39,745 nt of DNA, taken from a virus (taxonomy: Duplodnaviria; Heunggongvirae; Uroviricota; Caudoviricetes). Position 1 is the first letter of the stretch; each line of letters opens with the position of its first letter. Shown here one piece after another: positions 5,718-34,548 of this stretch. The stretch lies in IMG/VR virus record IMGVR_UViG_2579778884_000013; one strand, given 5' to 3'. The translations under genes and the position numbers were made by a program. Below the pieces are notes generated by a model that worked only from the letters and a program-made list of their open reading frames with translations, was not told the DNA's origin and did no database searches.

Positions 5718-5732
5718 TTACCTTTCAGGTAA
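5718..5732. promoter_or_regulatory. Operator-like palindrome TTACC-N5-GGTAA (TTACCTTTCAGGTAA)
   Basis: Perfect 5-bp inverted half-sites with 5-bp spacer, in divergent intergenic region between tailspike and SOS-controlled small gene; same motif recurs at least 11 more times. Confidence 0.5.
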
Positions 5733-5771
5733 TTTGCAAAACGTGCTGGATAGCAAACAAATTATTTGCTA

Positions 5772-5787
5772 CTGTATAAATATACAG
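5772..5787. promoter_or_regulatory. LexA (SOS) box CTGT-N8-ACAG
   Basis: TACTGTATAAATATACAGTTA matches consensus TACTGT(AT)4ACAGTA; 8 nt upstream of ATG 5795 and 23 nt upstream of ATG 5810. Confidence 0.75.
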
Positions 5788-5809
5788 TTATTGCATGGAG
5801 AAGATTAAG

Positions 5810-6067
5810 ATGCAGCAGTATCACTATCCACTGGAAGAGGGATTTACCGAAAGGATTCACACGCCGGGAGGCGTCAGGTCACTGGTGGAGGGATCGCACT
5901 TGATGAAATTACTCCGGGATCTCGATAAGGATGGATTTAATGTCGATGGCCCACTTGCCGAACTGACTGCACTGATTAACTACGTCACCAGCTCACAGAT
6001 GTCTATGCAGGATCTGCAAACACATCTCGACTATTGTGCCGAACAATTACGAAAACAAACCAGATAA
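5810..6067 (+). CDS. Small SOS-controlled protein, paralog of C-terminal domain of adjacent AntA-like protein; candidate small antirepressor
   Basis: GGAG RBS 9 nt upstream of ATG 5810 (alternative ATG 5795 lacks RBS); aligns with C-terminus of 6385..7041 product (LMKLLRDLDKDGFNVDGPLAELT vs [24 protein letters not shown]; DLQTHLDY vs DIQTHAEY). Confidence 0.6.
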   Translation: MQQYHYPLEEGFTERIHTPGGVRSLVEGSHLMKLLRDLDKDGFNVDGPLAELTALINYVTSSQMSMQDLQTHLDYCAEQLRKQTR

Positions 6068-6098
6068 GGTTTGAAATTACCAAATGGAGTGCTTATAT

Positions 6099-6113
6099 TT
6101 ACCTTTGCGGTAA
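6099..6113. promoter_or_regulatory. Operator-like palindrome TTACC-N5-GGTAA (TTACCTTTGCGGTAA)
   Basis: Perfect half-sites; lies between small SOS gene and AntA-like gene. Confidence 0.45.
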
Positions 6114-6203
6114 ATTTACATCGCACTCCTCTTGTGCCATAGTAATCGGGCACTGGCAAAATCCAGTGCCGGGATTGGTCTCCCGGATTACTAAGTGGCG
6201 CAT

Positions 6204-6227
6204 ACCACGCCAGACGTGGTTTTTTTA
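6204..6227 (+). terminator. Rho-independent terminator after small SOS gene
   Basis: Stem ACCACG/CGTGGT with 5-nt loop followed by T7 run. Confidence 0.5.
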
Positions 6228-6384
6228 TGCGTATAGCACAGTCATGCCAGAATTATGGTGGGCTGAATGGGGGTCCGAAAGGACGCCGGTACCACTTAGG
6301 CCGGTAAGACCAACTCCGTTCAGTTCACCACCATCTGATTGGTCTCAGCGGTGGTGATGTAATTCGCTAAGTGGAGACGCCATC

Positions 6385-7041
6385 ATGAACGCTCAACTCA
6401 TCCCCGTATTCAACGGCACTATATCTAACGAAACAGCCCTACTTTGTAATGCCCGCGATCTGCACGCTTTTTTAGGTGTTAAAAAGGTGTTTGCAGCATG
6501 GATTACAAATCGCATATCAGAATACGAATTCATTGAAAATCAAGACTATATTTTGCTTTCCAATTTGGGAAAGCAAACATCTGGTAGAGGCGGCCACAAC
6601 CGCAAAGAGTACCACCTCACCCTTGATACAGCCAAAGAGCTGGCGATGGTCGAGCGTAACGAAAAAGGTCGCCAGGTGCGACGCTACTTCATTGAATGCG
6701 AGAAACGTTTAAGACAACAAGAAACAAAAGTGGAGAAGGTCTTGTCAGGCTTCATGCCCGCCATTATGGAGGCGATCAAGCTGGAAGACAAAAAAGAATA
6801 CAGTGCCCCACTGAAGCCCGGCTACCGCAGCCTGATTCACTCGCCGTCTGGTGTTCTCGGCCTGACGGAGAACTCACTGCTGATGAATCTGCTGAACCAG
6901 TTACAGGACGACGGGCACGACGTATCGGGCGCGGCGGCGGAGCTGACCACCATGTTCTGCTACATCGTTGGTGTGAGCAAATGCCTGCGTGATATCCAGA
7001 CGCACGCGGAGTACATCAACGACAAGGCAGGGTTCTTCTGA
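6385..7041 (+). CDS. AntA-family antirepressor-like protein with C-terminal domain shared with small SOS protein
   Basis: N-terminal region [32 protein letters not shown] resembles AntA/AntB antirepressor domain; GGAG RBS 8 nt upstream. Confidence 0.7.
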
Positions 7042-7085
7042 CGGGCGGCGGCACAGGGATGTGCCTTTAAATAATTCTGTACAGA

Positions 7086-7128
7086 TTGCAGACTGGGGGT
7101 GAATAGCGTACTATTACCTCAAGGGTAA
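7086..7128 (+). promoter_or_regulatory. Candidate sigma70 promoter (TTGCAG-17-TACTAT) with operator-like palindrome TTACCTCAAGGGTAA (7114-7128) at -10/+1
   Basis: -35/-10 hexamers with 17-bp spacer; palindrome starts at last base of -10; 60 nt upstream of 210-aa gene. Confidence 0.45.
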
Positions 7129-7187
7129 GAAAGCATTTTTAATCTTCCCTTCAAAACGCGTCCTGTAGCCAAACATGGGAGGACGAA

Positions 7188-7820
7188 ATGAGAACAAATA
7201 CAACAAGAAAAGCGATGCCATACATTATCCCAGAAGCAGATTTCGATAGAAAACTGAACATGTCTGAGAAGAACACTAGTCACACCGAAAGCTACTTAGC
7301 GAAAGGTGTGGTTGATTTCGTTCTTCCGGGATTCACAACACCTTATGGTTATCGCCTTGTAAAATCTTGTAATGGCGATCATTACAGAATGATTACTACC
7401 AGCGATACTCCAGAAACGGTGTATGCGGTTAAGTTAATCTTTCGGGAAGATATCGTCGAAGCCAAAAGAACATGTACGCAGATCATGGTATGGCGTACGC
7501 CTAATGTTATTCATGACCGTGCTGTTCATGGTTTGCCTCAGATTTTTTTTCAGTTCTTCCTAGAGCAATATGCGATCGTTGTATCTGATGAGCAACAAAC
7601 AATCGATGGGAGAAGATTCTGGGAAAGAATGATTTCTTGGGCTATAAACACCCCAGGATATAATGTATACGTTTCAGATGGCTCTGAAGAAGATAGACCT
7701 CTTAGCTTCATGACATCATGGGATGATTTCTATAGCCAGTGGGCTGATTTCTGTTGGGGCAGTGATAAAGATGTGCATACCCACAGACTACTGGTTATAA
7801 GCAAAGATAAACTGCATTAA
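7188..7820 (+). CDS. Hypothetical 210-aa cytoplasmic protein, no family recognised (orphan accessory gene)
   Basis: Strong GGGAGG RBS 5 nt upstream; own promoter/operator and terminator; appears AT-rich by eye relative to neighbours; no TM or signal peptide. Confidence 0.6.
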   Translation: MRTNTTRKAMPYIIPEADFDRKLNMSEKNTSHTESYLAKGVVDFVLPGFTTPYGYRLVKSCNGDHYRMITTSDTPETVYAVKLIFREDIVEAKRTCTQIMVWRTPNVIHDRAVHGLPQIFFQFFLEQYAIVVSDEQQTIDGRRFWERMISWAINTPGYNVYVSDGSEEDRPLSFMTSWDDFYSQWADFCWGSDKDVHTHRLLVISKDKLH

Positions 7821-7824
7821 TAGA

Positions 7825-7846
7825 AGCCCGCAGCGCGGGCTTTTTT
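7825..7846 (+). terminator. Rho-independent terminator after 210-aa gene
   Basis: GCCCGC-CAGC-GCGGGC stem-loop followed by TTTTTT. Confidence 0.65.
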
Positions 7847-7918
7847 GTGGACGAAACAAAAGTCAGTGCTACACTCATTGACGCCACATTGAGGTGGCTT
7901 ATAGATGGAAATTTCACA

Positions 7919-8080
7919 ATGAAAAAAGCATTTGCTGCACTGTTCGTTTTGTTGTCTCTGGTAGCTTCAACTCAGGCCTTTGCCGGTCGTTGTCAGCACG
8001 ACAGCGACACTGCTGCTGACGGCTCCCGCTGCGGTGGGCGTTCTGCGGATTCCCGCCCGGGTGGCGGTGGCATTCGTTAA
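7919..8080 (+). CDS. Possible small secreted peptide (53 aa) in GC-rich segment; alternatively a structured RNA
   Basis: Signal peptide MKKAFAALFVLLSLVASTQAFA then Gly/Arg/Cys-rich 31 aa; weak RBS; 9-bp hairpin at 7986-8008 inside ORF. Confidence 0.3.
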   Translation: MKKAFAALFVLLSLVASTQAFAGRCQHDSDTAADGSRCGGRSADSRPGGGGIR

Positions 8081-8102
8081 AAACAAGGCCGCGAAAGCGG
8101 CC
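8076..8102 (-). terminator. Rho-independent terminator of lipoprotein gene
   Basis: GGCCGC-GAAA-GCGGCC hairpin (8087-8102) followed on - strand by TTGTTTTTA; perfect palindrome GTGACATGTCAC (8104-8115) overlaps lipoprotein stop. Confidence 0.5.
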
Positions 8103-8111
8103 TGTGACATG

Positions 8112-8492
8112 TCACGCAACGCAATTATTACCGCGCCATGTAACATTTTTAATAATCTTATCAGCACCAAACTCAACGTAAACAGAGCAACTGAAATGGA
8201 GTGTATAACCGCCATCAGTTGTTGCGTATGTGTTTGAATATATAGTATTACCAATTAGATTAGACGTAGTATTATACGTTGTGGTTTGTGGTACGTTATA
8301 ACTACCAGAGCTTGAGTAAACATACACTCTGTTTCCATCTGGAGATGTAAGCTCTCCCTGAGGATACCCCCACTGCTGAACCATTGCGTCTATACTCTGC
8401 CCGCGCCACGTAAGCATATTTCTTTCAAACTGTGCAGCTGACTGGCATCCAACGAGAAGCATAAATCCAAAAATCAAAAATACTTTTCTCAT
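8112..8492 (-). CDS. Lipoprotein of unknown function (Ser/Thr/Asn/Tyr-rich mature domain); candidate lysogenic-conversion or superinfection-exclusion gene
   Basis: Signal peptide MRKVFLIFGFMLLVGC with lipobox LVGC; AGGGG RBS 5 nt upstream of ATG 8492; own terminator; encoded within accessory island between late genes. Confidence 0.6.
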   Translation of the reverse strand: MRKVFLIFGFMLLVGCQSAAQFERNMLTWRGQSIDAMVQQWGYPQGELTSPDGNRVYVYSSSGSYNVPQTTTYNTTSNLIGNTIYSNTYATTDGGYTLHFSCSVYVEFGADKIIKNVTWRGNNCVA

Positions 8493-8539
8493 AATTACCC
8501 CTATCATGGAAAAACAGCACCAATCCACAAATTAACTAG

Positions 8540-8728
8540 TTATTTTATTATTCTTCCGAACAATACAATTCCTAATACTACAAAGCCGAACCATGCCGCT
8601 GCACGCAACAGAGATTCCAATTGAAACCCATTTTTATCAAAATGTATGAATAGCATAAAAACGCTGCACATATTAGTACAATAAAAGTTATTTGAACCAT
8701 CATATCTCCTTTTATTGCGGAGTGACAT
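8540..8728 (-). CDS. Possible small membrane protein (62 aa)
   Basis: Start overlaps stop of upstream ejection-protein gene; C-terminal hydrophobic segment AAAWFGFVVLGIVLFG; AT-rich; weak support. Confidence 0.3.
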   Translation of the reverse strand: MSLRNKRRYDGSNNFYCTNMCSVFMLFIHFDKNGFQLESLLRAAAWFGFVVLGIVLFGRIIK

Positions 8729-11186
8729 CCTGTGGTCGCCACCAGTATGTCTGGTTAAACTCTTTCTTCGAACGTTGCTCCATTTTACGCAAATAGCCTG
8801 GTGAAAAATACTCCTGCATCTGGTTAAAGATCATGTGATCGAGAGCCGCCTTCAAGTACCAGAGATTCGCACCAGGCATCAAACCTTTCCCCAGCTTCAC
8901 CAGATCACCACCAGTCTGCTCACTCTTCCCTTCCACAGCATTTAACGGTATGCCCTGAGCAATCTTCACTACGTCATCAACCAGACCAGCTACCGGGCCA
9001 AGCATCGACGCCAGCGCGCCGCTTCCGTACCTAGTGTGATCTGACAATAAAAAGTCACCGTAAAGGCCAAGACCACCACCTTTCAGTAGAGCACCAAGCC
9101 AAAATTTAGCAGCATCTTCTCCTGTCATCTCGCGAGGATTACGACCAGACGCAAGGTCGTTAAGTTGCTGCGACAAAGCGCCAAGAATGGTCGTACTGGC
9201 AATAAACGTCGCAATATATGCCGCACGCCCACCAGCAGACGGCATACCCATAGCGCGTGACCAGTGACGCATAACCACCGAGATAGGGAACGATTTAAAC
9301 AGGAAAACACTTCTCGTTAATTCACCTTTCCATGTTCCACGCTGAATACCAGAACCGGTTATCAGTTGCTCACGTGCTCCCGGTGTAATAACAGCCATAT
9401 CAACTTCTTCAGTTACGGCACCGAGCAGTTTACGCATTGCCTCAAATTTCACGCGTTCAGGCTCACCAAGATGTTTAACTGCTGAATCAGGGATACGCAT
9501 AATGCTTTCCGGTGTCAGCATCGTATTATTGCCGTTCCCCCAGTCCTCCTGTTGCGCCAGCTTCCATACGCTCCAGTCTGTGTCAGTAATCCCTTTGCTT
9601 TTCAGGATACGAAAATCAGAATCATCGAGGCTACGAAGGTCTGGTGTCCGTGACACTACTTCTCCCAAGCTTCCCATCATGGTTACGCCATAGGCGCGCT
9701 TGTGCGCATCTGACCATGCTGTAAGCCCACTGGCACGCATTACCGCCGTTGCAGCCCAACGAGACACAGACGGCCCCATATTATCCATCGCCCAGCGGTT
9801 AACGCTGCCAAGTAGAGATTCCATCGCCAGACCAGCGCGGCGCGCCCGCGCAAGTTCTGTACGGTTCGTTGGGTCCATAGCTTCAAGCTGGTTGCGGAAT
9901 AACTGGTTCATTGGAAGGTTGGTAACCTTCGCAGACAGATACATGGTTCCAAGATCAGAGAACGATGACAGCAACGCGGATCCGAGTCTGCTGGCAACCA
10001 GCCAGTTGCGGATATTGTCAGACCATCGCGCGATGTGCGGATTCGCTACAGGCTGTGTCTTTCCGGAAATAAAGTTGTACAGATTCTCTGTGTTGTTCGC
10101 CAGCCGCTCGACTTTACCGGTTTTACTCGGGTTAGCTGTTGCCGTTTCTGCCTTCACCTGATCAAGAAGAGAGCGGAAAACATGATCGGGGTTTGGGCCA
10201 TATGTTTCCACCAGTGCAATATCTTTACTGATACCTTCCAGGTGACCGACCATGATTTCCCATAGAGAGCGATCGCCATAAAGTTGCTGATATTGAAGAT
10301 AGGAATCTGCATCTTTGAAATGTATCTGTCGTGATGCATTACCACGGTTAGCACGTGCGCCGGAAATTCGCATTCCGGTATCAGTAAGCTTATTCAACCC
10401 ACCAGTAGCGATCGTGTTATAAGCCTCTCCAAGAAATGCAGACAACTCGGCATCGTTCATCAGTTGTCCATCGGCTCGGGTATAATATTTGCGATCCAGC
10501 TTACCTATAACATCGCTAACCCATTTATCTTTTGATACCGCCCCAACCTTTTCCATAGAATGATGTTGAGGGATCCCCCAGTTTTCGAGATAGCCAATGT
10601 CCCCACCAGCATCATTAAACCGGCGGCGCAGCAGCTCTGTAACTTCTCTCCACGCCTTAGCACCTTTTCTTGCTTTAGCATTGCCAGTATTTTGCCCCCG
10701 CATTTCATATACCAGGTCACGTACGCCAGCTTCATCTTCAAACAGACCAAAAAAGCGAGGATCAACTGCTTCGAATGCCTCCTGCAATTGACTCAATGCA
10801 TAATCACGGGTGGCTTTTGTTCTGGATTCAACAGAGAGGAAATTCGATTTACCGTCTGCATTAAAAGCAATAGTACGGTTAAGAGCGCCAAGTTTCCCAT
10901 CAGCCCCTTGATAGCTATTGATAAATTTATCCAATCTCTGACGTGCGGCTATAGTGAGGGCCACACGACGTTTCTTTAATGCCGCTTCTCGCTGTAATTC
11001 TTCAGATGCCAATTGTGCTGCACGATATAGCCGCTCTGATTCGGAAAGTTGTCTCCACGACATCGGGTCATCACGAGCAATAGAGCGCATATTTCGATAA
11101 ATGCGGTCTTCAATGTTCTGTATTTCTCGCGCCGTTAACGTGCGCTGCGCCGCCTGCTGGACCGCTTGTATACATTCCTGTCTCAT
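8712..11186 (-). CDS. Large internal virion (ejection/core) protein, T7 gp16-position
   Basis: 824 aa; AGAGG RBS; C-terminal hydrophobic/Gly-rich segments; position between tail-tube genes and tailspike. Confidence 0.6.
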   Translation of the reverse strand: MRQECIQAVQQAAQRTLTAREIQNIEDRIYRNMRSIARDDPMSWRQLSESERLYRAAQLASEELQREAALKKRRVALTIAARQRLDKFINSYQGADGKLGALNRTIAFNADGKSNFLSVESRTKATRDYALSQLQEAFEAVDPRFFGLFEDEAGVRDLVYEMRGQNTGNAKARKGAKAWREVTELLRRRFNDAGGDIGYLENWGIPQHHSMEKVGAVSKDKWVSDVIGKLDRKYYTRADGQLMNDAELSAFLGEAYNTIATGGLNKLTDTGMRISGARANRGNASRQIHFKDADSYLQYQQLYGDRSLWEIMVGHLEGISKDIALVETYGPNPDHVFRSLLDQVKAETATANPSKTGKVERLANNTENLYNFISGKTQPVANPHIARWSDNIRNWLVASRLGSALLSSFSDLGTMYLSAKVTNLPMNQLFRNQLEAMDPTNRTELARARRAGLAMESLLGSVNRWAMDNMGPSVSRWAATAVMRASGLTAWSDAHKRAYGVTMMGSLGEVVSRTPDLRSLDDSDFRILKSKGITDTDWSVWKLAQQEDWGNGNNTMLTPESIMRIPDSAVKHLGEPERVKFEAMRKLLGAVTEEVDMAVITPGAREQLITGSGIQRGTWKGELTRSVFLFKSFPISVVMRHWSRAMGMPSAGGRAAYIATFIASTTILGALSQQLNDLASGRNPREMTGEDAAKFWLGALLKGGGLGLYGDFLLSDHTRYGSGALASMLGPVAGLVDDVVKIAQGIPLNAVEGKSEQTGGDLVKLGKGLMPGANLWYLKAALDHMIFNQMQEYFSPGYLRKMEQRSKKEFNQTYWWRPQDVTPQ

Positions 11187-11191
11187 TTAAT

Positions 11192-15504: not shown

Positions 15505-15516
15505 CTTATTATCCCC

Positions 15517-19596: not shown

Positions 19597-19919
19597 TACT
19601 CACCCCCATTGCCGTACAGGGTTTCAGCCGCTGATTTTTCTACATCCCCGGAAACAGGAGCGATCGCCATATCAGTGATCTGCAGATCGGCGCTGCGATT
19701 AACACCATCGTCAGTTTCTCTGGCAGACAGGCCTCGAATAACAGCCTTTGCAGTTATCATCACTTCTGTTCCGACGCCCTGAGGTTGCGCCTTCAGCTTA
19801 TTCAATGTGTCGTTATTAAGAGTGATGCACAGCCCCCACGGGTATTCATCGCGAGTTCTGGTTTCTCCGCTCTCATCCTGGTAGCTGTCAGTGCCGGTTT
19901 TGAGGTTTACGAGTTCCAT
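19596..19919 (-). CDS. Hypothetical virion/head-tail protein
   Basis: ATG at 19919 with AGGAG RBS (track start 19925 is GTG); hairpin with UUCG-type loop just upstream (19936-19953). Confidence 0.5.
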   Translation of the reverse strand: MELVNLKTGTDSYQDESGETRTRDEYPWGLCITLNNDTLNKLKAQPQGVGTEVMITAKAVIRGLSARETDDGVNRSADLQITDMAIAPVSGDVEKSAAETLYGNGGE

Positions 19920-24697: not shown

Positions 24698-24787
24698 ATC
24701 AATGACTCCGTACGCAATTAAATTATTACCAATTTAACCACATATGTTTTATTTATCGTAGAAGGTTGACATTTAACGCGCTAATTA

Positions 24788-24802
24788 TTACCTTTCAGGT
24801 AA
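24788..24802. promoter_or_regulatory. Operator-like palindrome TTACC-N5-GGTAA (TTACCTTTCAGGTAA, identical to 5718 site)
   Basis: Lies between - strand late operon start and + strand tRNA unit; TTGACA hexamer at 24766-24771. Confidence 0.45.
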
Positions 24803-25124: not shown

Positions 25125-25201
25125 GTGGCATTAGCTCAGTTGGACAGAGCAACCGCCTTCTAAGCGGTTGGTCGCAGGTTCGAATCCTGCATGCCACGCC
25201 A
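25125..25201 (+). tRNA. tRNA-Arg (anticodon UCU, reads AGA)
   Basis: Cloverleaf read directly: acceptor GTGGCAT/ATGCCAC, D-arm GCTC-AGTTGGACA-GAGC, anticodon arm ACCGC-CTTCTAA-GCGGT, T-arm GCAGG-TTCGAAT-CCTGC, discriminator G, encoded CCA. Confidence 0.85.
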
Positions 25202-25244
25202 GAATCACGCCTAAGGACCGTGATGCCAGAAGTTCCAGGGGGTT

Positions 25245-25287
25245 GGCGGTGATGGTTTCCCTTGAAGGACTATCACCGCCCTTTTTA
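25245..25287 (+). terminator. Rho-independent terminator after tRNA
   Basis: 9-bp stem GGCGGTGAT/ATCACCGCC around 18-nt loop, followed by CTTTTT. Confidence 0.55.
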
Positions 25288-25364
25288 CAGCAGGACGCCA
25301 TTGCGATGACTTCATGCTGTAAACCAGTACAGCCACGGAAGGCATAACTCATTGCTTCCAGTTC

Positions 25365-25388
25365 GCCCGGTTCGCCGGGCATTTTTTT
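25365..25388 (+). terminator. Strong hairpin with U-tract abutting RBS of Gp49-like gene (terminator or attenuator)
   Basis: GCCCGG-TTCG-CCGGGC (UUCG tetraloop) followed by ATTTTTTT, then AAGGTGAG RBS and ATG 25400. Confidence 0.55.
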
Positions 25389-25399
25389 AAGGTGAGATT

Positions 25400-25846: not shown

Positions 25847-27322
25847 TTAAGCATAAGGGTCATAATCCGTTATGGCCCTTCCCTGCTGGCTTTGCTGTCC
25901 TGGTATATTTATGCGTTTCGAGACCGGGAAAGCAAACGTCAGCAGTAGCGCATCGCCTTTACCAGGAGAACGCCCAAGACGCTCTTTGATATCTTCCTTC
26001 GGTTCGATAACGATTTTACCGTCCACACGAACTTTGTACTCTGCCGCAGACAGGTCGTCCGCTGTTTCCTGGTCATCCAGCATGCCGCCCAGCCTCAGCC
26101 ATGTCTTGCATGAGTTGAACATCTCCCCACGCTTGTTGAGCATCTGCGGGTCAGTAGACGCGCCACCGAACGGAACAAGTTGCCATGTGCGCCCCCAACC
26201 ATCACCGATTGACTTCAGACCGGTACCGTAACCGAAGTCGATGAACACCGCGTCAGCCTGATACTGGTCTTCAAAGTCAGCGATACGCTTCGCCATAATC
26301 AGATCGTCGGTAGTCTTGTTGCCAGTCCACAGCACCTTACTGTGTAGCCCCTGCCGCAGGTATATCACCGCGTCATCAACGCCTGAATATGCCGGGTCAA
26401 CACCGATTATCACCGGAGCATGCGCCACCTGCGCAGCGGTTACCACCCGTTTCATTGCCTCATCAGTAAGACCGGTAGGGATAAACTGCAATTCAGATGC
26501 ATCAGGGAATATGCCGCGCACACGGATTTTAACGAAGTCGCTGTCTTCCCCGTAGTCATCGACCCATTTCTGCAACTGCTGTTTGTTAGTGCCTTCCACC
26601 GTCCGGCTGTCAATCTGCGCAGTTTTCCAGCGGTGTTTATATTTGCGGAAACATTCGCGGAAACGCCCGGTGTTACGTGTAGGGTTTCCGAACGCCACCC
26701 AGATAATCTCAGTGTCTTCGTCCGTAAGCGCACCCTCAGCAACTTCCCACACCAGATCCGCAATGTTCGACGCTTCATCGAATACCACGATGATGCGTTT
26801 GCGCTCGTTGTGTAGTCCGGCGAATGCCTCAGTGTTGTGCTCAGACCAGGGGATTGCGTCAGCTCGCCACCGCTTGTCGTGCCCAGGATCATTGCTGTAC
26901 ATCGCGGTAGCGGTACAGGTAAACCAGTCTTTCGTGATAGCAAGGTTCGACCACTTGATAATTTCCGGCCAGGTCTTCGTTTGTAGCTGGTTTTCGGTGT
27001 TGGCGGTCACCACGACCTTACAATCCTCGCAAGTGGACATGCCCCAGTTGATCAGCATTGAGATGAATGCGGATTTACCAATACCGTGACCAGAAGCACG
27101 TGCCAGCATAAGCGGCTGATAGCGCGTCTCTGGATTCTGCAGGTGATCACGTATCTCTCGGAACGCATCAGCCTGCCACTGACGTGGACCGGTGGCATGT
27201 GCCAGTTCAGTCCCCTCTTCCCCCCACGGGAACGCATAGATGGCATAGCCAAGCGGATCGTGAGTGAACCCTGCAATATCCTCGATCAACTGCTCTTCAG
27301 GAGATAACGCTGTATCTGTCAC
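25847..27322 (-). CDS. Terminase large subunit
   Basis: 491 aa; ATPase-like N-half and nuclease-like C-half with acidic motifs; GTG start overlapping small-subunit stop. Confidence 0.85.
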   Translation of the reverse strand: MTDTALSPEEQLIEDIAGFTHDPLGYAIYAFPWGEEGTELAHATGPRQWQADAFREIRDHLQNPETRYQPLMLARASGHGIGKSAFISMLINWGMSTCEDCKVVVTANTENQLQTKTWPEIIKWSNLAITKDWFTCTATAMYSNDPGHDKRWRADAIPWSEHNTEAFAGLHNERKRIIVVFDEASNIADLVWEVAEGALTDEDTEIIWVAFGNPTRNTGRFRECFRKYKHRWKTAQIDSRTVEGTNKQQLQKWVDDYGEDSDFVKIRVRGIFPDASELQFIPTGLTDEAMKRVVTAAQVAHAPVIIGVDPAYSGVDDAVIYLRQGLHSKVLWTGNKTTDDLIMAKRIADFEDQYQADAVFIDFGYGTGLKSIGDGWGRTWQLVPFGGASTDPQMLNKRGEMFNSCKTWLRLGGMLDDQETADDLSAAEYKVRVDGKIVIEPKEDIKERLGRSPGKGDALLLTFAFPVSKRINIPGQQSQQGRAITDYDPYA

Positions 27323-27915
27323 TGATTACCATCCTGACGTTCTTTGAGTCGCTTCCTGGCTGCTGCTATGCGATCAGCAATTGTCACATTCACATTAACA
27401 TCCAGGCGTTCTTTGAATGCGTTGACGTCGACGTGCTTACCAATCAGTTCGAGGTTCTTCACCTTGTCAGGCCATTTAATTTTTTTGAGGATTGTCTCTA
27501 TCGAATCCTCGTTCATGTTCATGATGGTCGATGACAGATCAAAGCCACTAAGCGTAGTGCGCCAGATTTTCGGCCACTCACGGATTGGTTTAAGGCTCCC
27601 ATCGTCGTTGAGGATGTCGATCACGTCCATCTGGTCGATCTCCACCAGGCGCATGAGAACGTAATCAGCACTGACGCGCATTCGTTTGTTGCGCTCCTCC
27701 ATCAACTCGGCAATCCGTTTTTGAATGCGTTCATCGCGCATCATGACACTGGCTTTAACTGCCGCTGTATTTGGAGAGAATCCTGCGTTAATCGCTGCCT
27801 GAGTCTGGTTTTCAGGCGTTTTGATGTATGACTGGCAATAAGCCTCCTGCATTGCTGTTAGTGGCTTAAATTGCGTTGATTTGCGTTTATAGGTTTTAGG
27901 TTCAGCAGGCATCAT
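27319..27915 (-). CDS. Terminase small subunit
   Basis: Terminase_2-like N-terminus (LTAMQEAYCQSYIKTPENQTQAAINAGFS); start set to ATG 27915/27912 rather than TTG 27993. Confidence 0.75.
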   Translation of the reverse strand: MMPAEPKTYKRKSTQFKPLTAMQEAYCQSYIKTPENQTQAAINAGFSPNTAAVKASVMMRDERIQKRIAELMEERNKRMRVSADYVLMRLVEIDQMDVIDILNDDGSLKPIREWPKIWRTTLSGFDLSSTIMNMNEDSIETILKKIKWPDKVKNLELIGKHVDVNAFKERLDVNVNVTIADRIAAARKRLKERQDGNQ

Positions 27916-28033
27916 AACCACCGTGGTAATAGTTACCGTTGTGGTAATAGTACCATGCAAAATAAAGCCGCCATAGTTGGCGGCAGTATTCAAAACCCAT
28001 CAAATTCATCATGCATAATCTACTCGTGACATG

Positions 28034-28372
28034 TCACACTATTAATTTCGTTTCATGCCAGCCTTTAGTCACCCAGCATTGCGAGTCACCATTACACGGG
28101 CATGAATTAACTGGAACTCTCTCGCCGCACTTACCGCAACATTTTCTGCTGATCGATTTTATACGCCCGCGCACGCGTGCATCATCCTGGCGGATCAGTA
28201 ACGCTATATACTCACCAAATTCGTAAGGCGCACGCCCGGGGCGACGCGTGGCACAGTTACGCTCCAGCATTTCAATTTCCTGAGCATCAAGCACAATTTC
28301 CAGCTTACGCACACCAGATGCAGCTTGTCTGGCTCTCTGAGCGGCTTTGCGCTCTGCTGCTGATTTAGCCAT
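28034..28372 (-). CDS. Hypothetical protein with C-terminal Cys cluster (possible zinc ribbon)
   Basis: C-terminus CCGKCGERVPVNSCPCNGDSQC; basic helical N-terminus; ATG 28372 (track start is TTG). Confidence 0.45.
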   Translation of the reverse strand: MAKSAAERKAAQRARQAASGVRKLEIVLDAQEIEMLERNCATRRPGRAPYEFGEYIALLIRQDDARVRGRIKSISRKCCGKCGERVPVNSCPCNGDSQCWVTKGWHETKLIV

Positions 28373-28646
28373 CAATATTTACCTTTATCGCGAACACATT
28401 TACCGGTTTATCGCCGATGTGCGGATGTGTGATTGTCTTGATTTCATATCCGTCATACGGAACATCAATTCTACGGCTGGAATCGTCGCGCTTCGGATAT
28501 CCCTTTGTGATAATCAGGCGGTCATATTCCCGGAACATAATTCGCTTATTCCAGTAGTCATTACACAGGCGATACTCTTCCGTTTTATCTCCGCGAATCA
28601 TGGCATCGAAGTATTCACCTTTGACGGCAAGTTGCAGGTTAGCCAT
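28365..28646 (-). CDS. Hypothetical protein (possibly ASCH/PUA-like fold)
   Basis: ATG 28646 with GGAGGTG RBS; 1-nt overlap with upstream gene; fold assignment unverified. Confidence 0.45.
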   Translation of the reverse strand: MANLQLAVKGEYFDAMIRGDKTEEYRLCNDYWNKRIMFREYDRLIITKGYPKRDDSSRRIDVPYDGYEIKTITHPHIGDKPVNVFAIKVNIDG

Positions 28647-28906
28647 TACCGCACCTCCAGTCTCCATACCGCCTGACCAATCCGGCTGGCATGGTTATCT
28701 TTAGATACTGTTCCGTCTTTAGCAATCTCCATAAGAATTTTGCGCAAATCTTCCGAACGCCATTCTTCATCAGGAAATTCCTTCTCCATTGCCAACCGCA
28801 AATTCCAGGTTGCCATCCTGAATGGATATTCCCCGCCGAGAGCTTTATCTTGCAGGGCAGCCCGGGAACGCATCACCTGCAAAACCTTCTCTTTTACATC
28901 CATCAT
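28646..28906 (-). CDS. Hypothetical early protein
   Basis: AGGAGG RBS; translationally coupled to neighbours. Confidence 0.45.
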   Translation of the reverse strand: MMDVKEKVLQVMRSRAALQDKALGGEYPFRMATWNLRLAMEKEFPDEEWRSEDLRKILMEIAKDGTVSKDNHASRIGQAVWRLEVR

Positions 28907-29862
28907 TTCGCCTCCTGCGGCGGTTCCGGTAGCGGAATCCAGTGAGTTGCTTGCTCAATACCATTACCCGGCTTAATCGTTGCATCTCCGCGCCGAAAGG
29001 TGCTTCCGGTATAGCGTGCGGAGCATATTAGCGGCTCAACCAGATCACTATCGAAATTCACCGAAATAAGTACGTTCTGATTCTTTTTCGGCATTCGCTC
29101 ACTACAGCTTATCCAACCATCCGGAGTTACCGGAGTTGGTCCATCGAATTCGGGCATGTCAGGACCTTTTCTGATAGCTTTAGCCAGCTCCAGCGGGTCA
29201 TCGTAAAGCCAGTCGCCAGTTTGTGGGTGATTTGCTTCTGCAAGCTGCGCAGCCCATTCAAGACCATCTTTTTGACCTTGGAGATAATCAAGCGGCAACT
29301 CTTCATGATTACTTACAGGTTCGGCACCATGAAGCATGGCGCCGCTCCGCTCTATGCCATCCAGCGCGATTCGCAGTGCCTGAATTGTGGTAGAGCTATC
29401 GTTTGGGGCTATTCCATATCGCTCGAATACAGCTAAATGGTTGCGCATAATCTCAGGCGTAAGCTCTTTGTAAGCATAAGCAAGAGGCTCTGATGCATTA
29501 TCCAGCACAACCGACGCAGGCGCGGCAGCATAAACAGGAATAACGTCCGCTTGCTCTTTATTGCTTTCATCCGTTAAAGCCCAGAATAATTTCCCGGCCG
29601 GATGTTTGAAAATATAAGCAACTGGATCTGCTTCCAGCGATGCCAGCGCAATCCGTGCCAGTTCCATTTGTTCACCACGGGTAAGCCCGTTTTCAAGCGG
29701 GTTTTTAATGAACAATTCAATACGTTCTTTGGTAATAGTGGTCATGACCCACTGCTTCCCCTGAAAGTCTGTAACGCCTTTTTTCACGTAGCGATATCGC
29801 CATGCCACTGGTTTTGCCTGCCCTGCCTTTTCATGCCCTTCCTGATAATTAATCTCGCTCAT
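28903..29862 (-). CDS. Phage protein with C-terminal DUF551-like domain
   Basis: C-terminal motif ATHWIPLPEPP typical of DUF551; start overlaps upstream stop (ATGA). Confidence 0.6.
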   Translation of the reverse strand: MSEINYQEGHEKAGQAKPVAWRYRYVKKGVTDFQGKQWVMTTITKERIELFIKNPLENGLTRGEQMELARIALASLEADPVAYIFKHPAGKLFWALTDESNKEQADVIPVYAAAPASVVLDNASEPLAYAYKELTPEIMRNHLAVFERYGIAPNDSSTTIQALRIALDGIERSGAMLHGAEPVSNHEELPLDYLQGQKDGLEWAAQLAEANHPQTGDWLYDDPLELAKAIRKGPDMPEFDGPTPVTPDGWISCSERMPKKNQNVLISVNFDSDLVEPLICSARYTGSTFRRGDATIKPGNGIEQATHWIPLPEPPQEAK

Positions 29863-30035
29863 TCATCGCCCCACTCATCACAATATGCTTCGACCGGTGT
29901 TTTCCCTGCTTCATAATCATCACGCCATGCTTCAGCATCAGCGGCACTTCCACCGCGTAACTCTGCATAATCCATTAACAGTTCATGCCATTCTTCAAAA
30001 CTGGCGTTATATTTAGTTGAACCAAAATCAGCCAT
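29859..30035 (-). CDS. Small acidic protein (58 aa), not in ORF track
   Basis: GAGGAAG RBS 6 nt upstream of ATG 30035; stop overlaps next start (ATGA); translation read manually. Confidence 0.4.
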   Translation of the reverse strand: MADFGSTKYNASFEEWHELLMDYAELRGGSAADAEAWRDDYEAGKTPVEAYCDEWGDE

Positions 30036-30210
30036 TTTGTTCTTCCTCTTCGTCTTTTATTTCGTGGTATGAGTAATTGCAGTAGTTAAAGAAAATATCT
30101 TTAGCTTCATCCTGTATTTCATCTGGTGTTGCATCATCATCCACTTCGAATTCATCCTCGAAATCTCCACCGGCTATTCCCGTTTCAATAATTATTTTGA
30201 ATTTTCGCAT
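30028..30210 (-). CDS. Small acidic hypothetical protein
   Basis: 60 aa; overlaps downstream gene start by 8 nt. Confidence 0.4.
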   Translation of the reverse strand: MRKFKIIIETGIAGGDFEDEFEVDDDATPDEIQDEAKDIFFNYCNYSYHEIKDEEEEQNG

Positions 30211-30338
30211 TTCACTACCGCCCTTTCGGACGGCCTCCTGATGTTCTGAGGGTGCAGGAATCCCTCCGGTTAAGGATTTAATAAAAATCGTTTCTGATTT
30301 AAATCTTCAGTATTTAGTTGTTAGTCGGTTTATAGCCT

Positions 30339-30650
30339 TTATGCTTCGGCCTTATTTCTCAGCCATACACAAACCGGGCCATCTTCGGTGTCATGTATTG
30401 AACCAATAAACCATCCATTGCCCTCTGGTCGTTCCGGTTCCCATGCAGAAATATCAGCATCACACGCATCAAGGTCAGCACATCCTTCATCTCTGAAGCA
30501 GAGGACGTATTGAAGATTATTTTCCTCCATCCAGGCGTTAAACTCTTCCGTTGAAATATATTCCCGACCGTCACAGAATTTTTCATATTCAGGATGCGTC
30601 CAGTAGCCATATTCATCACGTACTACTGGTATTTCTTTAATTTCATTCAT
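30339..30650 (-). CDS. Hypothetical early protein
   Basis: GGGAG RBS; overlaps upstream gene by 8 nt. Confidence 0.45.
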   Translation of the reverse strand: MNEIKEIPVVRDEYGYWTHPEYEKFCDGREYISTEEFNAWMEENNLQYVLCFRDEGCADLDACDADISAWEPERPEGNGWFIGSIHDTEDGPVCVWLRNKAEA

Positions 30651-30933
30651 TTCTGTTCTCCCACGTTTTCAGACTTTCACCACAGAACGGACAAAATGAA
30701 ACCCGAACTGGTAATTTAGAAAATTCACCGGAACGCAACATCACAAAATCAGGACCGCGAGTTAAACTCTCATTCCAGATTTTGTATATCAGCAGACCTT
30801 TTCGCATCGTGTATTCAGCATCACGCTCAAGGGACTTTGCCACACTGCGCATATCAACGGCACCACATTCTGCTTTCAGTTCCGAAGCCATCTCATGCCC
30901 GGCGGCAACTAACCCTTTGATATTACTTTCCAT
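30643..30933 (-). CDS. Hypothetical protein with CxxC motif
   Basis: GAGGG RBS; FCPFCGE motif. Confidence 0.45.
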   Translation of the reverse strand: MESNIKGLVAAGHEMASELKAECGAVDMRSVAKSLERDAEYTMRKGLLIYKIWNESLTRGPDFVMLRSGEFSKLPVRVSFCPFCGESLKTWENRNE

Positions 30934-30994
30934 CTTTACCCTCGCTTATCCACATAACTTATTGATTACATTGATAACTAAAAAGATCGTCGAT

Positions 30995-31339
30995 TCAGAA
31001 CTCTTCGATTTTCCATCCGCCACCTGCTTTCTTTGGCTTAACAGTTACCCCGATGATTCGGAACGGATACTGATCTGCGGCGACTTTTGTTTTCACTCTG
31101 GCGTCGTCGGTCCAGAAACCTTTCACTTCGTGCAGTTCCATCTCGCCGGTAGCGAGCATCACAGCGAAATCTGGCGTATAGAACGTGTTATCAGCTAACC
31201 GCAGCTTGATACCCTCGAATCGATACCAGGCGATTTCCCCTGCACGTTTACGCAGCTCAAGGTGCTGGCAATACGCAGATTCTGTTTTGTTCATCTGGCC
31301 TGTTTTGAGTCGACCAAGAGCCTGTATCTGTTTTCTCAT
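30995..31339 (-). CDS. DUF1064-like protein (PD-(D/E)xK nuclease fold)
   Basis: Motifs YTPDFAV and ELHEVKGF consistent with DUF1064; AAGGG RBS overlapped by operator-like site. Confidence 0.6.
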   Translation of the reverse strand: MRKQIQALGRLKTGQMNKTESAYCQHLELRKRAGEIAWYRFEGIKLRLADNTFYTPDFAVMLATGEMELHEVKGFWTDDARVKTKVAADQYPFRIIGVTVKPKKAGGGWKIEEF

Positions 31340-31342
31340 GAT

Positions 31343-31419
31343 TTACCCTTGAGGTAATTAAAAACCACATAAGACACGAAATCAATAGATTTTAGAATAT
31401 TTTATTACCCAACAGGTAA
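31343..31419. promoter_or_regulatory. Two operator-like palindromes TTACC-N5-GGTAA (31343-31357 and 31405-31419)
   Basis: TTACCCTTGAGGTAA overlaps RBS of DUF1064-like gene; TTACCCAACAGGTAA 48 nt upstream; both in intergenic gap after P-like gene. Confidence 0.45.
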
Positions 31420-31456
31420 TTATCAAGACGTAAAAAAATGCGCTATCGCGCTGGTA

Positions 31457-32257
31457 TTACTTGATAAATCCTGCCGCCTTTCCCCGCCTGTATTCCTCCA
31501 TCAGCCACTGCGCCGGTGTTATTCCCCCAAGGGTGGCGGCGTTAGGCATGCACCCGAAACTTCGCCCTGGTGGATGGTAAACGTCTCTCCCTGTGTCCGG
31601 AGGTGTACTCATGGGCTCTCGCTTTGCCTGTATGCTGATCACCGGATCGGGTATCTGCTGTCCGGAAGCTACCTTTTTCGCCCAATCATCGAGCAGCCTG
31701 CGCGCGTGTTTCTCAACCTCAATCTCGCTAAGCTGGCGCTGATACATTGCACGGCGGGTATCACATACGACCCAGTACATAACCGGATGTCGCCACGGGA
31801 ATCTTTCGGGACCACCAGGATATAAACTTTTTTCCTTGCTGTACCGGTGAAACTCCGCCATCACATCGTCAATGGTGACGCCAAGAACCATCTTGCTGTC
31901 TTTGCACCACTTGATAAATTGCCCTGGAGACGGCCAGAACGGAGATTCACTGGCGCGGGCGTGGCGCATACCAGCAGAAACCTGTTCACGGGTTCGGATC
32001 CCCCCTTCGGCAAACGCAGCAATCCACTGCTGTTTTGCAGCAACTTCCTGCTCTGGCGTCTTCAGGTTGGTTACCACTGCCGCCGGAAACAGTTGTTTCA
32101 GCTGTTTAAAAAGGGCATCAACAAGCCTCTCTGCTGACATGTTCACCACATTGTCATTGTTGACGTACTGATGCTCATAACCTGACATGCGAGAAAGGGC
32201 TTCTCCGTCACGGTTTTGTATCTCGGTAAAAACGTTGTTCACAAGAAATCCTCCCAT
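31457..32257 (-). CDS. Replication protein P-like (DnaB helicase loader)
   Basis: PSPGQFIKWCKD matches lambda P PSPGQFVAWCRE; start overlaps O-like gene stop. Confidence 0.75.
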   Translation of the reverse strand: MGGFLVNNVFTEIQNRDGEALSRMSGYEHQYVNNDNVVNMSAERLVDALFKQLKQLFPAAVVTNLKTPEQEVAAKQQWIAAFAEGGIRTREQVSAGMRHARASESPFWPSPGQFIKWCKDSKMVLGVTIDDVMAEFHRYSKEKSLYPGGPERFPWRHPVMYWVVCDTRRAMYQRQLSEIEVEKHARRLLDDWAKKVASGQQIPDPVISIQAKREPMSTPPDTGRDVYHPPGRSFGCMPNAATLGGITPAQWLMEEYRRGKAAGFIK

Positions 32258-33078
32258 GCTTCAGGGCTGTTCCAGTGCGGAACGTTGTTATCAGGTAATG
32301 TTGATTGCTTCTGTCTGCTAATCTGCAGCCGCCTTGCCAGCTTCTGCTCCCACTGTGCCTGATGGTATGCCTTACCCTCAGCCATCCAGTAAATTCTGAA
32401 CTCTGCAAGTTCCTGTGCCGTTGGCAGACTGTCCAGGTAGATCCCCTGCAATGAGCTTTTCCGAAGAAAGTCATCTGATGGCTGCCATTGTTCATGCATG
32501 ACAAATTTGCCTAATTGCCCTGGCCCACCAGGAGGAACAAAGTTATTCATCACGGCGTTGTTTGCTCCGGGGTCATGAGGCACAGAATCCCCGCTTTTTG
32601 TCCTGCTCTCCCTCTCTTGGTTAAATGACTGGTTATATGACTGGTTCTGGATCCCGTTTTTGGGATCATTCAACATCCCGTTTTTGGGATCATTCAACAT
32701 CCCGTTTTTGGGATCATTCAACATCCCGTTTTTGGGTATATTCCCGTTTTCGGGTATATTCCCGTTTTCGGGTTCATTGCCCCCCTCCCGGTTGCCTTTA
32801 ATGTTCCCGTTTTTGGTTATATTAAGAGAGAAAACCCGCACTCTTTTTGTCGCTCCCTTTCTCTCTCCGGTATCTGAAATAATCCCCATTTTCATGAGCG
32901 ATATAAGCCCGGCCTGCACGGTTTTTTTATTCAGGCAAGTGTCTTTAACGAGGCGTTCTATGCTGGGGTAGCAGAGGTTATATTCATCGGCTCTGTCAGC
33001 CATCGAGAGCAGTATGAGCTTTAATGATGAGCTACCTGGATCTGTCTCCCAAGCCCAATCTGTTGCATGTCTGCTCAT
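32239..33078 (-). CDS. Replication initiator (lambda O-like), ori iterons inside coding sequence
   Basis: Winged-helix-like N-terminus; internal peptide repeats PKNGMLND x3 encoded by DNA iterons; GGAG RBS; followed by P-like gene. Confidence 0.7.
   Translation of the reverse strand: MSRHATDWAWETDPGSSSLKLILLSMADRADEYNLCYPSIERLVKDTCLNKKTVQAGLISLMKMGIISDTGERKGATKRVRVFSLNITKNGNIKGNREGGNEPENGNIPENGNIPKNGMLNDPKNGMLNDPKNGMLNDPKNGIQNQSYNQSFNQERESRTKSGDSVPHDPGANNAVMNNFVPPGGPGQLGKFVMHEQWQPSDDFLRKSSLQGIYLDSLPTAQELAEFRIYWMAEGKAYHQAQWEQKLARRLQISRQKQSTLPDNNVPHWNSPEAWEDFL
32651..32820. repeat. Phage origin of replication: array of about 7 palindromic iterons (core ATCCCGTTTTTGGGAT) followed by AT-rich segment
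   Basis: Three identical 24-bp units at 32651, 32675, 32699, then degenerate 18-bp units to 32776 and one at about 32805; each contains inverted repeat ATCCC/GGGAT. Confidence 0.75.
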
Positions 33079-33093
33079 GATTAATCTCCGCTA

Positions 33094-33294
33094 TCAGCTT
33101 GAATGTTGTGGGGAGGAATTAATCATGATCTGCTTAATCTCTGCCCTGATGCGACGGTTTGACTCCATGGTGCACTCAACACAGTGTCCGTTGTAAACCC
33201 AGCGTTCACTGTCATGTCCGTGCTTACATGGTTTTCCGGTGTAGTAGCGTTTAAGTCCGCGCTTTGCGGCATCAATACGTGTAATGATTTCCAT
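33094..33294 (-). CDS. Small Cys/His-rich protein at cII-equivalent position, function unknown
   Basis: ATG 33294 with AGGG RBS; pattern CKHGH...HCVEC. Confidence 0.4.
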   Translation of the reverse strand: MEIITRIDAAKRGLKRYYTGKPCKHGHDSERWVYNGHCVECTMESNRRIRAEIKQIMINSSPQHSS

Positions 33295-33396
33295 GGTAAG
33301 CCCTGTTATTAGTATTGGGATTACGGTTATTTTGTGCTGACACAAAAAAAAGATCAACCAGATTTGGTTTTTTATTACCTTTGAGGTACGAATAGA

Positions 33397-33423
33397 TATG
33401 AAAAGACCGCCGGATGGCGGTCT
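33397..33423 (-). terminator. tR1-like terminator downstream of cro-like gene
   Basis: Stem AGACCGCC/GGCGGTCT with 4-nt loop; on - strand followed by TTTTCAT; adjacent degenerate operator-like site 33375-33389. Confidence 0.45.
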
Positions 33424-33444
33424 ACAGAGGGTTGTTGCCAGATA

Positions 33445-33675
33445 TCATGAGTAGAAGAAGTATGCCAGTTCCGCTTTTGAGCGCAGCCATTGTCTTGTTT
33501 TACAGGCTTTAAAAAGCCCATTCATCAATACCTTACCTGGCATTTTGCGCTTACCTGTTAAGTGAGTCTGGATATAGTGACTCGTCGTTCCGGCTTCCTG
33601 TGCGAAGGCTTCACGCTCATCCGGAGTAAGTGCAAGCCAGTGCTTTTTGAAATCGAAATGTCCGTTATCGCTCAT
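33445..33675 (-). CDS. Cro-like HTH regulator
   Basis: Divergent from repressor gene; HTH segment REAFAQEAGTTSHYIQTHLTGKRKMPGK; first gene of - strand early operon. Confidence 0.6.
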   Translation of the reverse strand: MSDNGHFDFKKHWLALTPDEREAFAQEAGTTSHYIQTHLTGKRKMPGKVLMNGLFKACKTRQWLRSKAELAYFFYS

Positions 33676-33711
33676 AGCTATTGCCTGATATTTATTTCAG
33701 ATAATAAATAT

Positions 33712-33774
33712 TCACCCATAAGGTAACAAAAATCAAGGATAGTTACCTATGAGGTGCATTTACCTGTTGGGTAA
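33712..33774. promoter_or_regulatory. Tripartite operator cluster between cro-like and repressor genes
   Basis: Three 15-bp sites: TCACCCATAAGGTAA (33712-33726), TTACCTATGAGGTGC (33743-33757), TTACCTGTTGGGTAA (33760-33774). Confidence 0.6.
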
Positions 33775-33829
33775 TATTGCTTTAAATTGAATCATCTACT
33801 GATTCATATATGAGGCGATTTTCCAGAAA

Positions 33830-34414
33830 ATGAAAAGTATCCAGGACGTCCGCAGGCAAAATCTCAACGACTTGATCGACCGTGAATTCAATGGTGTTCA
33901 GACGCGGATGGCAGAAAAACTTGGAACTCAGGCAAATCTGGTAAACCGCTGGGCTCTTGGAAAGAAGGTTATCGGCGACCAGGTTGCGCGAAAAATTGAA
34001 GCTGCCGCCAATAAACCCCGTAACTGGCTTGATATCGATCGCTCGCTTTCTCAGGAAGGTTTTCAGCCTGTCGGCCCAAGCGACATTGGTCAGCTGGCGG
34101 CTCACAACCTGGAACGCTGGATGAGCGAAAGCCGCGACCTTTCAACGCAGGGAAAACTACACCGCGCATCCGGCGTCGCCCAGGTGACAATCAGCCGCCT
34201 GTTAAACAATGAAGTCAGCGTTTCCATTTCCACCCTGGAGAATGTTGCATCCGCATTCGGGCGTCACGGCTATGAATTACTGATTCACCCGCACGACCCT
34301 GCGACTATCAACTATGATCGCTCGCGCTACGCATTGTTACCTGAAACAGAGAAGGCAAAGATCGAAAGTTACATTGAATTTGTCATCAACCAGAACGAAA
34401 AAAGAAAACAATAA
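33830..34414 (+). CDS. Prophage repressor with two XRE-type HTH domains and no S24 peptidase domain
   Basis: Two HTH-like segments (TRMAEKLGTQANLVNRWALGKK and HRASGVAQVTISRLLNNEVSVS); no Ala-Gly ... Ser ... Lys autocleavage module; divergent from cro-like gene across operators. Confidence 0.7.
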   Translation: MKSIQDVRRQNLNDLIDREFNGVQTRMAEKLGTQANLVNRWALGKKVIGDQVARKIEAAANKPRNWLDIDRSLSQEGFQPVGPSDIGQLAAHNLERWMSESRDLSTQGKLHRASGVAQVTISRLLNNEVSVSISTLENVASAFGRHGYELLIHPHDPATINYDRSRYALLPETEKAKIESYIEFVINQNEKRKQ

Positions 34415-34435
34415 AATCATATTTTTCAGTAAGTA

Positions 34436-34458
34436 AGCCGCCTCATGGCGGCTTTTTT
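34436..34458 (+). terminator. Rho-independent terminator after repressor gene
   Basis: GCCGCC-TCAT-GGCGGC stem-loop followed by TTTTTT. Confidence 0.6.
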
Positions 34459-34471
34459 ATTGCCTATACGA

Positions 34472-34548
34472 TTACCTTATGGGTAATTTTTTTAACTCAT
34501 ATCTATTGACATCAAACCAGATACGCATAATTATTACCTCAACGGTAA
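34472..34548 (+). promoter_or_regulatory. Early-left promoter region with two operator-like palindromes flanking a TTGACA -35 hexamer
   Basis: TTACCTTATGGGTAA (34472-34486), TTGACA at 34506-34511, -10-like CATAAT/AATTAT around 34526-34534, TTACCTCAACGGTAA (34534-34548) at -10/+1. Confidence 0.5.

Follow-up and report, generated by a model that had tools for sequence, protein, structure and literature searches.

How does a prophage keep its lytic genes silent when they are distributed over many separate transcription units? This question is raised by a 39,745-nucleotide stretch of viral DNA (IMG/VR record IMGVR_UViG_2579778884_000013; the whole stretch analysed is referred to here as the window), which corresponds to a phiV10/ε15-like temperate podovirus prophage of the genus Uetakevirus, with ~97% identity to phiV10, phiv142-3 and ZX5 over the shared regions and in reversed orientation relative to phiV10. 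A first-pass annotation had pointed out a 15-bp palindrome, TTACC-N5-GGTAA, dispersed over intergenic sites, and had suggested that a single repressor directly controls many scattered transcription units. The analysis described here indicates that this palindrome is very probably the operator of the prophage repressor, Rep (194 amino acids, encoded at 33830..34414 on the + strand), which would silence each lytic unit separately, and that an antirepressor, Ant, would release all of them together. The suggestion of one repressor acting on many units is supported by the register of the palindromes with the predicted promoters, by their genus-wide conservation at orthologous places, by the way in which they follow the boundaries of transcription units and by the presence of a Rep of the type found in the Salmonella phage SPC32H.

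Ten perfect copies of the palindrome are present in the 39.7 kb of the window (5718, 6099, 7114, 24788, 27933, 31343, 31405, 33760, 34472 and 34534), against 0.01 expected from shuffled sequences, and 14 copies are found when up to one mismatch is allowed (the perfect ones plus 27915, 33375, 33712 and 5486), against 0.59 expected. A curated gene map leaves 8.2% of the window as non-coding DNA, and all ten perfect sites are located there (P about 1e-11), with none in the 36.5 kb of coding DNA. At up to two mismatches the intergenic sites amount to 14 (ten perfect, three with one mismatch, and 33743, with two mismatches in a half-site that reads GGTGC), nine of which lie outside the left and right operator regions (OL and OR). 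The sole coding match, 5486 (one mismatch, in the tailspike gene), was rejected as an operator, since it has no conserved counterpart in relatives and does not exceed what chance would produce. When all 5-mer palindromes with spacers of 0 to 10 were scanned in an unbiased way, TTACC-N5 ranked first in the window as well as in phiV10, ε15 and ZX5; a 150-kb sample of E. coli K-12 contains a single perfect copy and three with one mismatch, as many as chance would give. The motif scan confirmed the nine perfect positions previously listed, and the intergenic location ascribed to all sites holds for the ten perfect ones and for 33375, 33712 and 33743. These last three, described as carrying one degenerate half-site, do exist, although 33743 has two mismatches rather than one degenerate position, and the list had overlooked the perfect site 27933 and its one-mismatch neighbour 27915. 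An A or a T occupies the centre of the spacer in 76/78 site strands, and the flanks lengthen the motif to a 17-bp form, ATTACC-NNWNN-GGTAAT.

The palindromes keep a fixed register with the predicted promoter cores, and this register, like the cassette described below, is conserved across genera. In five promoters the last base of the -10 hexamer is also the first T of TTACC. These are the early-left promoter PL (TTGACA-17-AATTAT, 34506..34534 on the + strand, 10/12 matches, with -35 and -10 elements invariant across the genus), whose -10 (34529-34534) ends at the operator that starts at 34534; P_isrK/antA (TTGAAA-17-TATATT, 6071-6099, -10 at 6094-6099), fused to the perfect operator 6099..6113; P_210aa (TTGCAG-17-TACTAT, -35 at 7086-7091 and -10 at 7109-7114), fused to the perfect operator 7114..7128 of a gene coding for a 210-amino-acid protein; and, on the - strand, P_TerS (extended -10 TGgTACTAT, 27955-27947, operator start 27947) and P_DUF1064 (TTGATT-17-TTTAAT, -35 at 31385-31380 and -10 at 31362-31357, operator start 31357).

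Moreover, PL, P_DUF1064 and P_p42 (the promoter of the p42, DnaT-like and P-like genes) share a common cassette composed of a terminator, a distal operator at about -62, ~27 bp, the -35 element, 17 bp and a -10 element fused to a proximal operator, with the two operators 62 bp apart, a spacing that is invariant from E. coli to Salmonella phages. At PL, which two sites flank as had been noticed, the distal operator OL2 (34472..34486, perfect) follows directly the rep terminator (34435-34454) and lies 62 bp, centre to centre, upstream of OL1 (34534..34548, perfect), which is centred near +1 and invariant in 6 genomes; the spacing of this pair is kept in about 80 IMG/VR relatives. The DUF1064 operon has a perfect distal operator (31405..31419) after a terminator and a perfect proximal one (31343..31357) that sits on the -10 TTTAAT, 62 bp from the distal site, and covers the Shine-Dalgarno region, an overlap also noticed earlier. 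This promoter architecture is invariant in 7 genomes. A different promoter proposed for the operon by a promoter scanner (TTGATA-16-TAAAAT, 31426-31399) is not conserved and was rejected in favour of the conserved TTGATT-17-TTTAAT. In P_p42 the distal operator (33375..33389, one mismatch) comes after the cro terminator (33404-33423), and the core is formed by a conserved TTGATC (33357-33352), 17 bp and CAAAAT (33334-33329); its proximal element is only a half-site, TAACC (33329-33325), to which the -10 is fused.

Two operators precede TerS. The first (27933..27947, perfect) is the one fused to the extended -10 and is orthologous to the feature annotated as 'protein_bind repressor' at 12..27 in ε15, and the second (27915..27929, one mismatch), 18 bp from it, overlaps the TerS Shine-Dalgarno. 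Both lie inside a long ORF with a TTG start (27319..27993), upstream of an ATG at 27912 that corresponds to the TerS starts of ε15, SPC32H and Tyrion; because this is the conserved start, the two sites are considered intergenic, and the ε15-type ATG is likely to be the true start of the gene. The TerS start given in the phiV10 record places both operators and a terminator inside the coding sequence (27913-27993 in the window; L001 41-112).

The remaining perfect sites outside the immunity region are located between divergent units. Site 24788..24802 separates the gp3/portal late operon (- strand) from the tRNA-Arg/p03 unit (+ strand) and is orthologous to the ε15 site 2931..2947. An invariant TTGACA (24766-24771) is found 17 nt before a TACCTT contained within this operator; together they form a candidate promoter, directed rightward to tRNA-Arg and p03, with which the site overlaps. 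The tRNA-Arg(TCT) itself (25125-25201, + strand) shares sequence with ORF 25131..25382 on the - strand, which corresponds to phiV10 p04 and is probably no gene because of this overlap. Site 5718..5732, orthologous to the ε15 site 19895..19911, separates the divergent ant and tailspike genes, with the predicted ant transcription start ~55-60 bp downstream of it. A late-promoter-like block, CCATATRTGG-N9-TAWWAN, is conserved upstream of the tailspike (5662-5689, - strand) and gp3/portal (24706-24745, - strand) genes and also precedes the lysis cassette in phiV10, ε15, SPC32H and Tyrion (L001 24735-24765), and a related sequence, CCAAATCTGG (33358-33367), adjoins the -35 of P_p42; this block is probably an activator site.

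In the immunity region, the gap that separates the cro-like gene from the repressor gene contains three sites, in the operator layout that had been expected for them. OR3 (33760..33774, perfect) is proximal to rep; OR2 (33743..33757), 17 bp from it, is the site with two mismatches, and its counterpart is perfect in ε15, SPC32H and BUCT711; OR1 (33712..33726), 31 bp further, has one mismatch (TCACC) and is placed between the -35 and -10 elements of the cro-side promoter, its weakened half-site being kept in every genome compared.

The palindrome is equally enriched, ranks first and is found at orthologous places in phiV10, ZX5, the Enterobacter phage Tyrion, the Klebsiella phage BUCT711, the Salmonella phages ε15 and SPC32H and a Scandinavium prophage, and it is kept in about 80 IMG/VR relatives. 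A phylogenetic footprint built from six intergenic alignments of 6-7 genomes each gave 92/100 invariant columns in the half-sites, 10/50 in the spacers and 298/852 in the other intergenic positions. The sites also appear and disappear with the boundaries of transcription units: a site before the lysis cassette is present in the 4/4 relatives in which a conversion gene on the reverse strand separates the tailspike gene from the lysis genes, and absent from the window, ZX5 and BUCT711, where these genes are contiguous, and site 6099 is found only in phages bearing the second antirepressor module described below.

Part of this arrangement had already been annotated. The GenBank record of ε15 (AY150271.2) contains seven dispersed features of the type 'protein_bind, repressor, lysogeny' with the sequence (A)TTACC-N5-GGTAAT, located before TerS, before gp3/portal, in the gp19/tailspike gap, at the early-left promoter (three) and before the gene that follows the replication genes; they mark 7 of the 11 perfect sites of that genome and none of its OR sites. 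These are presumably the repressor sites predicted by Kropinski et al. 2007. The phiV10 record carries no operator annotation. Since the ε15 record assigns the same sites to repressor binding, the dispersed-operator design is known and not new; the present analysis adds a complete map of sites, the fusion of -10 element and operator, a cassette with a conserved spacing of 62 bp and the way in which the sites correlate with transcription units.

Rep is composed of an N-terminal helix-turn-helix (HTH), a middle dimerisation domain and a C-terminal domain for tetramerisation and Ant binding, and is similar over its full length to the SPC32H repressor (PDB 5D50_A, E 3.5e-42, residues 1-191 against 2-198). 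A domain search returned only HTH matches (HTH_3/Cro-C1-type models) and no Peptidase_S24 domain. The recognition helix, NLVNRW, is invariant across the genus, though overall identity drops to 42-45%. In a genome scan, all full-length relatives of Rep keep both this helix and the same palindrome; distant homologues that share only the N-terminal region have other helices and lack TTACC-N5-GGTAA, with no alternative motif identified, and belong to other systems. A search with the DNA-binding domain returned only fragments of close relatives, and one with the C-terminal domain was dominated by relatives of 99% identity. No clear palindrome was found for the S24-type CI repressor of Pseudomonas PseuP_224. 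In the secondary sources available on SPC32H, Rep is described as binding palindromic sites as a tetramer, one tetramer being sufficient for repression, with DNA-binding pairs that come from different dimers and with Ant breaking the tetramer; according to one of these summaries, the repression mechanism still lacks an extensive characterisation. Overexpression of the ZX5 repressor, which is 99.5% identical, has been reported to reduce holin and endolysin transcripts by >99.9%. The SPC32H Rep-Ant switch was described by Kim & Ryu 2013 and Kim et al. 2016 (structures PDB 5D50 and 5D4Z).

Two antirepressors are encoded next to each other. The small one, Ant (5795..6067, + strand, 85-90 amino acids), matches PDB 5D50_E (E 1.7e-47), and its true start is likely the ATG at 5810, which gives 85 amino acids. 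A consensus LexA box, CTGTATAAATATACAG (5772..5787), lies over the ant promoter and is conserved in 7 genomes. A second, imperfect LexA-like box (CTGTGAATATGAATAG, 5699-5714) is found beside operator 5718 in the window and ZX5 and not in other relatives, and being confined to this type it does not form part of the conserved design. Operator 6099 is fused to the promoter of an isrK-like small RNA (6150-6226), a C4 antisense RNA (6251-6335) and the AntA-type antirepressor (6385..7041), all on the + strand; both RNAs exceed their Rfam gathering scores (67.7 and 61.2 bits), and a terminator (6204-6228) is located at the isrK-like RNA. AntA contains the PF08346 domain and a phrog_450 match on residues 135-216, which places its C-terminal ~80 residues and the small, LexA-controlled Ant in one PHROG family. 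The region 6071-7041 is a second antirepressor module that resembles immI of phage P1, under a promoter predicted to be controlled by Rep.

From this, a model can be proposed in which about a dozen short transcription units make up the genome, many following a rho-independent terminator and each with its own sigma-70-type promoter, and in which a Rep operator would be built into nearly every lytic promoter. Bound Rep would cover positions -7 to +8 in the commonest register and would silence the early-left, cro, replication, DUF1064, terminase, head/tail and tailspike/lysis units, together with the second antirepressor module. With 10 bp between the centres of its half-sites, an operator could accommodate two HTH domains on one face of the DNA, and the conserved pairing of operators at 62 bp or at 17-18 bp fits a tetramer with two DNA-binding pairs. 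Upon DNA damage, LexA would leave the ant promoter, Ant would be made and would dismantle the Rep tetramers, and all the units would be derepressed at once. Only two genes at the left end, which have no site, would stay free of Rep. These (1..516, a glycine-zipper/TraT-like lipoprotein, and 532..1071, a DUF5384 protein, both on the + strand) belong to the segment 1-1161, which is outside the phiV10-like synteny, and are likely morons or flanking DNA.

Several points weigh against the assignment of the sites to Rep as separate, directly occluded operators. The occupation of each site by Rep, rather than by Cro or together with it, has been deduced from sequence and homology, the transcription start sites are predictions, and a 62-bp protein-bridged loop would be very tight, the bridging by one tetramer being a proposal. 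At the tailspike and gp3/portal promoters, the full operator lies ~50-85 bp upstream of the apparent -10 and the core holds only a half-site, GGTAAT; as the operator is too far from the core, simple occlusion is unlikely there, and repression may need bridging, or these operators may serve the divergent promoters. Finally, the Cro-like regulator (76 amino acids, 33445..33675, - strand, a phrog_35 transcriptional repressor) is more conserved than Rep, and for this reason conservation cannot assign the sites to Rep, to Cro or to both.

The Cro-like protein may in fact bind the same sites as Rep, and it is quite possible, if short of an even chance, that both proteins use them. A stronger version, in which the palindromes would be mainly or solely targets of the Cro-like protein as a genome-wide lytic regulator, with Rep acting only at OL/OR or on other sequences, is improbable. 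The Cro-like protein of the window and ε15 gp39 share 76% identity, and the segment AGTTSHYIQ.HLT (residues 28-40) is invariant save for one T/V position, against the 42-45% identity of Rep; Cro and the repressor act on common operators in λ-type switches, and the weak OR1 half-site kept in every genome is what would be expected if two proteins ranked the sites differently. On the other hand, the unbiased palindrome scan found no other repeated palindrome for Rep in the immunity region or elsewhere, the published summaries consulted describe Rep as binding palindromic sites as a tetramer, the depositors of ε15 assign the sites to the repressor, and the paired geometry of the sites suits a tetramer. 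In addition, a lysogen needs these units off, and it is not apparent why Cro would be required at the promoters of the terminase and antirepressor units, all of which makes exclusive use of the sites by Cro unlikely.

Functions other than repressor binding account still less well for the data. Sites 31343 and 27915 overlap Shine-Dalgarno regions and several others come after terminators, as could be the case for RNA hairpins acting in translation, processing or termination; however, folding predictions give weak hairpins (-1 to -7 kcal/mol), whose loops are unconstrained except for the central A/T. OL2, the distal sites and OR are upstream of their promoters and so would not be transcribed from them. 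The sites show the same symmetry on both strands and keep phase with the -10/-35 elements, so this explanation can practically be discarded. The repeats also delimit mosaic modules that vary from one relative to another, namely the early genes, the lysis cassette and the antirepressor module, and one pair adjoins the terminase gene, which might suggest sites for module-boundary recombination, restriction-modification or packaging without a role in transcription. This is very improbable, since restriction targets are avoided rather than enriched in phage genomes and would not be confined to promoters, and since the fixed -10 register and the conserved 62-bp cassette are properties of promoters; operators may recombine as a side effect, which would leave the constraint on the half-sites unexplained.

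Within the assignment to Rep, a more elaborate possibility, which we regard as rather doubtful, is that the operators are not independent switches and are bridged by tetramers into a single cooperative repressosome that Ant would collapse in one step. The 62-bp pairs would then enclose the -35/-10 elements of the three early promoters in tight Rep micro-loops, each tandem 17-18-bp pair would be held by one tetramer, and the lone late and antirepressor operators would pair with half-sites (GGTAAT in the late cores, TAACC in P_p42) that are conserved, or among themselves across hundreds of bp.

Three other features of the window deserve mention. It is cut exactly at two gene starts, with an ATG opening at position 1 and the integrase gene starting at 39745, and because of the latter cut the one-mismatch site conserved upstream of int in relatives falls beyond it. 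The DnaT-like gene contains three exact tandem 24-bp repeats (TGGGATCATTCAACATCCCGTTTT, 32661-32728), flagged as hairpins by the terminator scan, that are probably origin iterons. The octamer ATCTGGTT is present in 12 copies against 1.1 expected (sites include 2506, 4819, 21271, 23454, 29038, 33356, 34515, 37924 and 38858), 10/12 of them on the - strand whatever the direction of the gene; it is enriched alike in phiV10 and ZX5, less in ε15, and lacks an extended consensus.

The repression of each lytic unit on its own by Rep, and not through a λ-style cascade, would explain how a common family of prophages of E. coli, Salmonella, Klebsiella and Enterobacter is silenced, including the O157-specific phiV10 and the serotype-converting ε15. 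As the phiV10 record has no operators, a complete operator/promoter map would improve its annotation, for instance by moving the TerS start out of the operators, and the compact promoter-operator cassettes could be used for synthetic purposes. No new class of regulation is opened by these data.

The dispersed operators had been considered unusual for a lambdoid control region, which is true relative to λ, although the region is not lambdoid and such sites are already annotated in ε15. It shares with λ and P22 a tripartite OR between divergent repressor and cro-like genes, with one weaker site, and operators that overlap PL and PR. In contrast, Rep lacks the LexA-like S24 self-cleavage domain at which lambdoid repressors are cleaved with RecA, operators are found beyond OL and OR, and the downstream units are preceded by cassettes of terminator plus promoter instead of being reached by N/Q antitermination. 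Mycobacteriophage L5 also has many sites in its prophage, bound by gp71 and located in short intergenic gaps, some of them just past terminators. These stoperators are asymmetric 13-mers that block elongation within transcribed regions in an orientation-dependent manner, whereas the sites described here are symmetric and phased to -10/-35 hexamers. In P1 and P7, a single repressor, C1, acts on many dispersed operators of separate operons, including an antirepressor operon that starts with the C4 antisense RNA. The succession of operator 6099, C4 RNA and AntA reproduces the immI arrangement, as a functional analogy only, because in P1 the operators are asymmetric 17-mers and the C1 repressor has no relationship with Rep, in contrast to the palindromes, the HTH tetramer and the LexA-controlled small Ant of this system.

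The closest relationship is with ε15 and SPC32H. Their Rep proteins are only 42-45% identical to that of the window, both have a third operator at PL, and the window lacks the lysis-cassette site and adds the operators 6099 (isrK/C4/AntA) and 7114 (210-amino-acid protein) for modules that they do not possess. The half-sites, their spacing and the 17-bp form are the same, as are the architecture of the repressor, the small Ant under a LexA box and the positions of the operators before TerS, before gp3/portal, between ant and tailspike, at PL and at the promoter that follows the replication genes. Repressor domains without autocleavage, a LexA-box-controlled small Ant (~86 amino acids) and orthologous 17-bp palindromes were all found, suggesting that the window encodes a member of the Rep-operator-Ant system of Uetakevirus.

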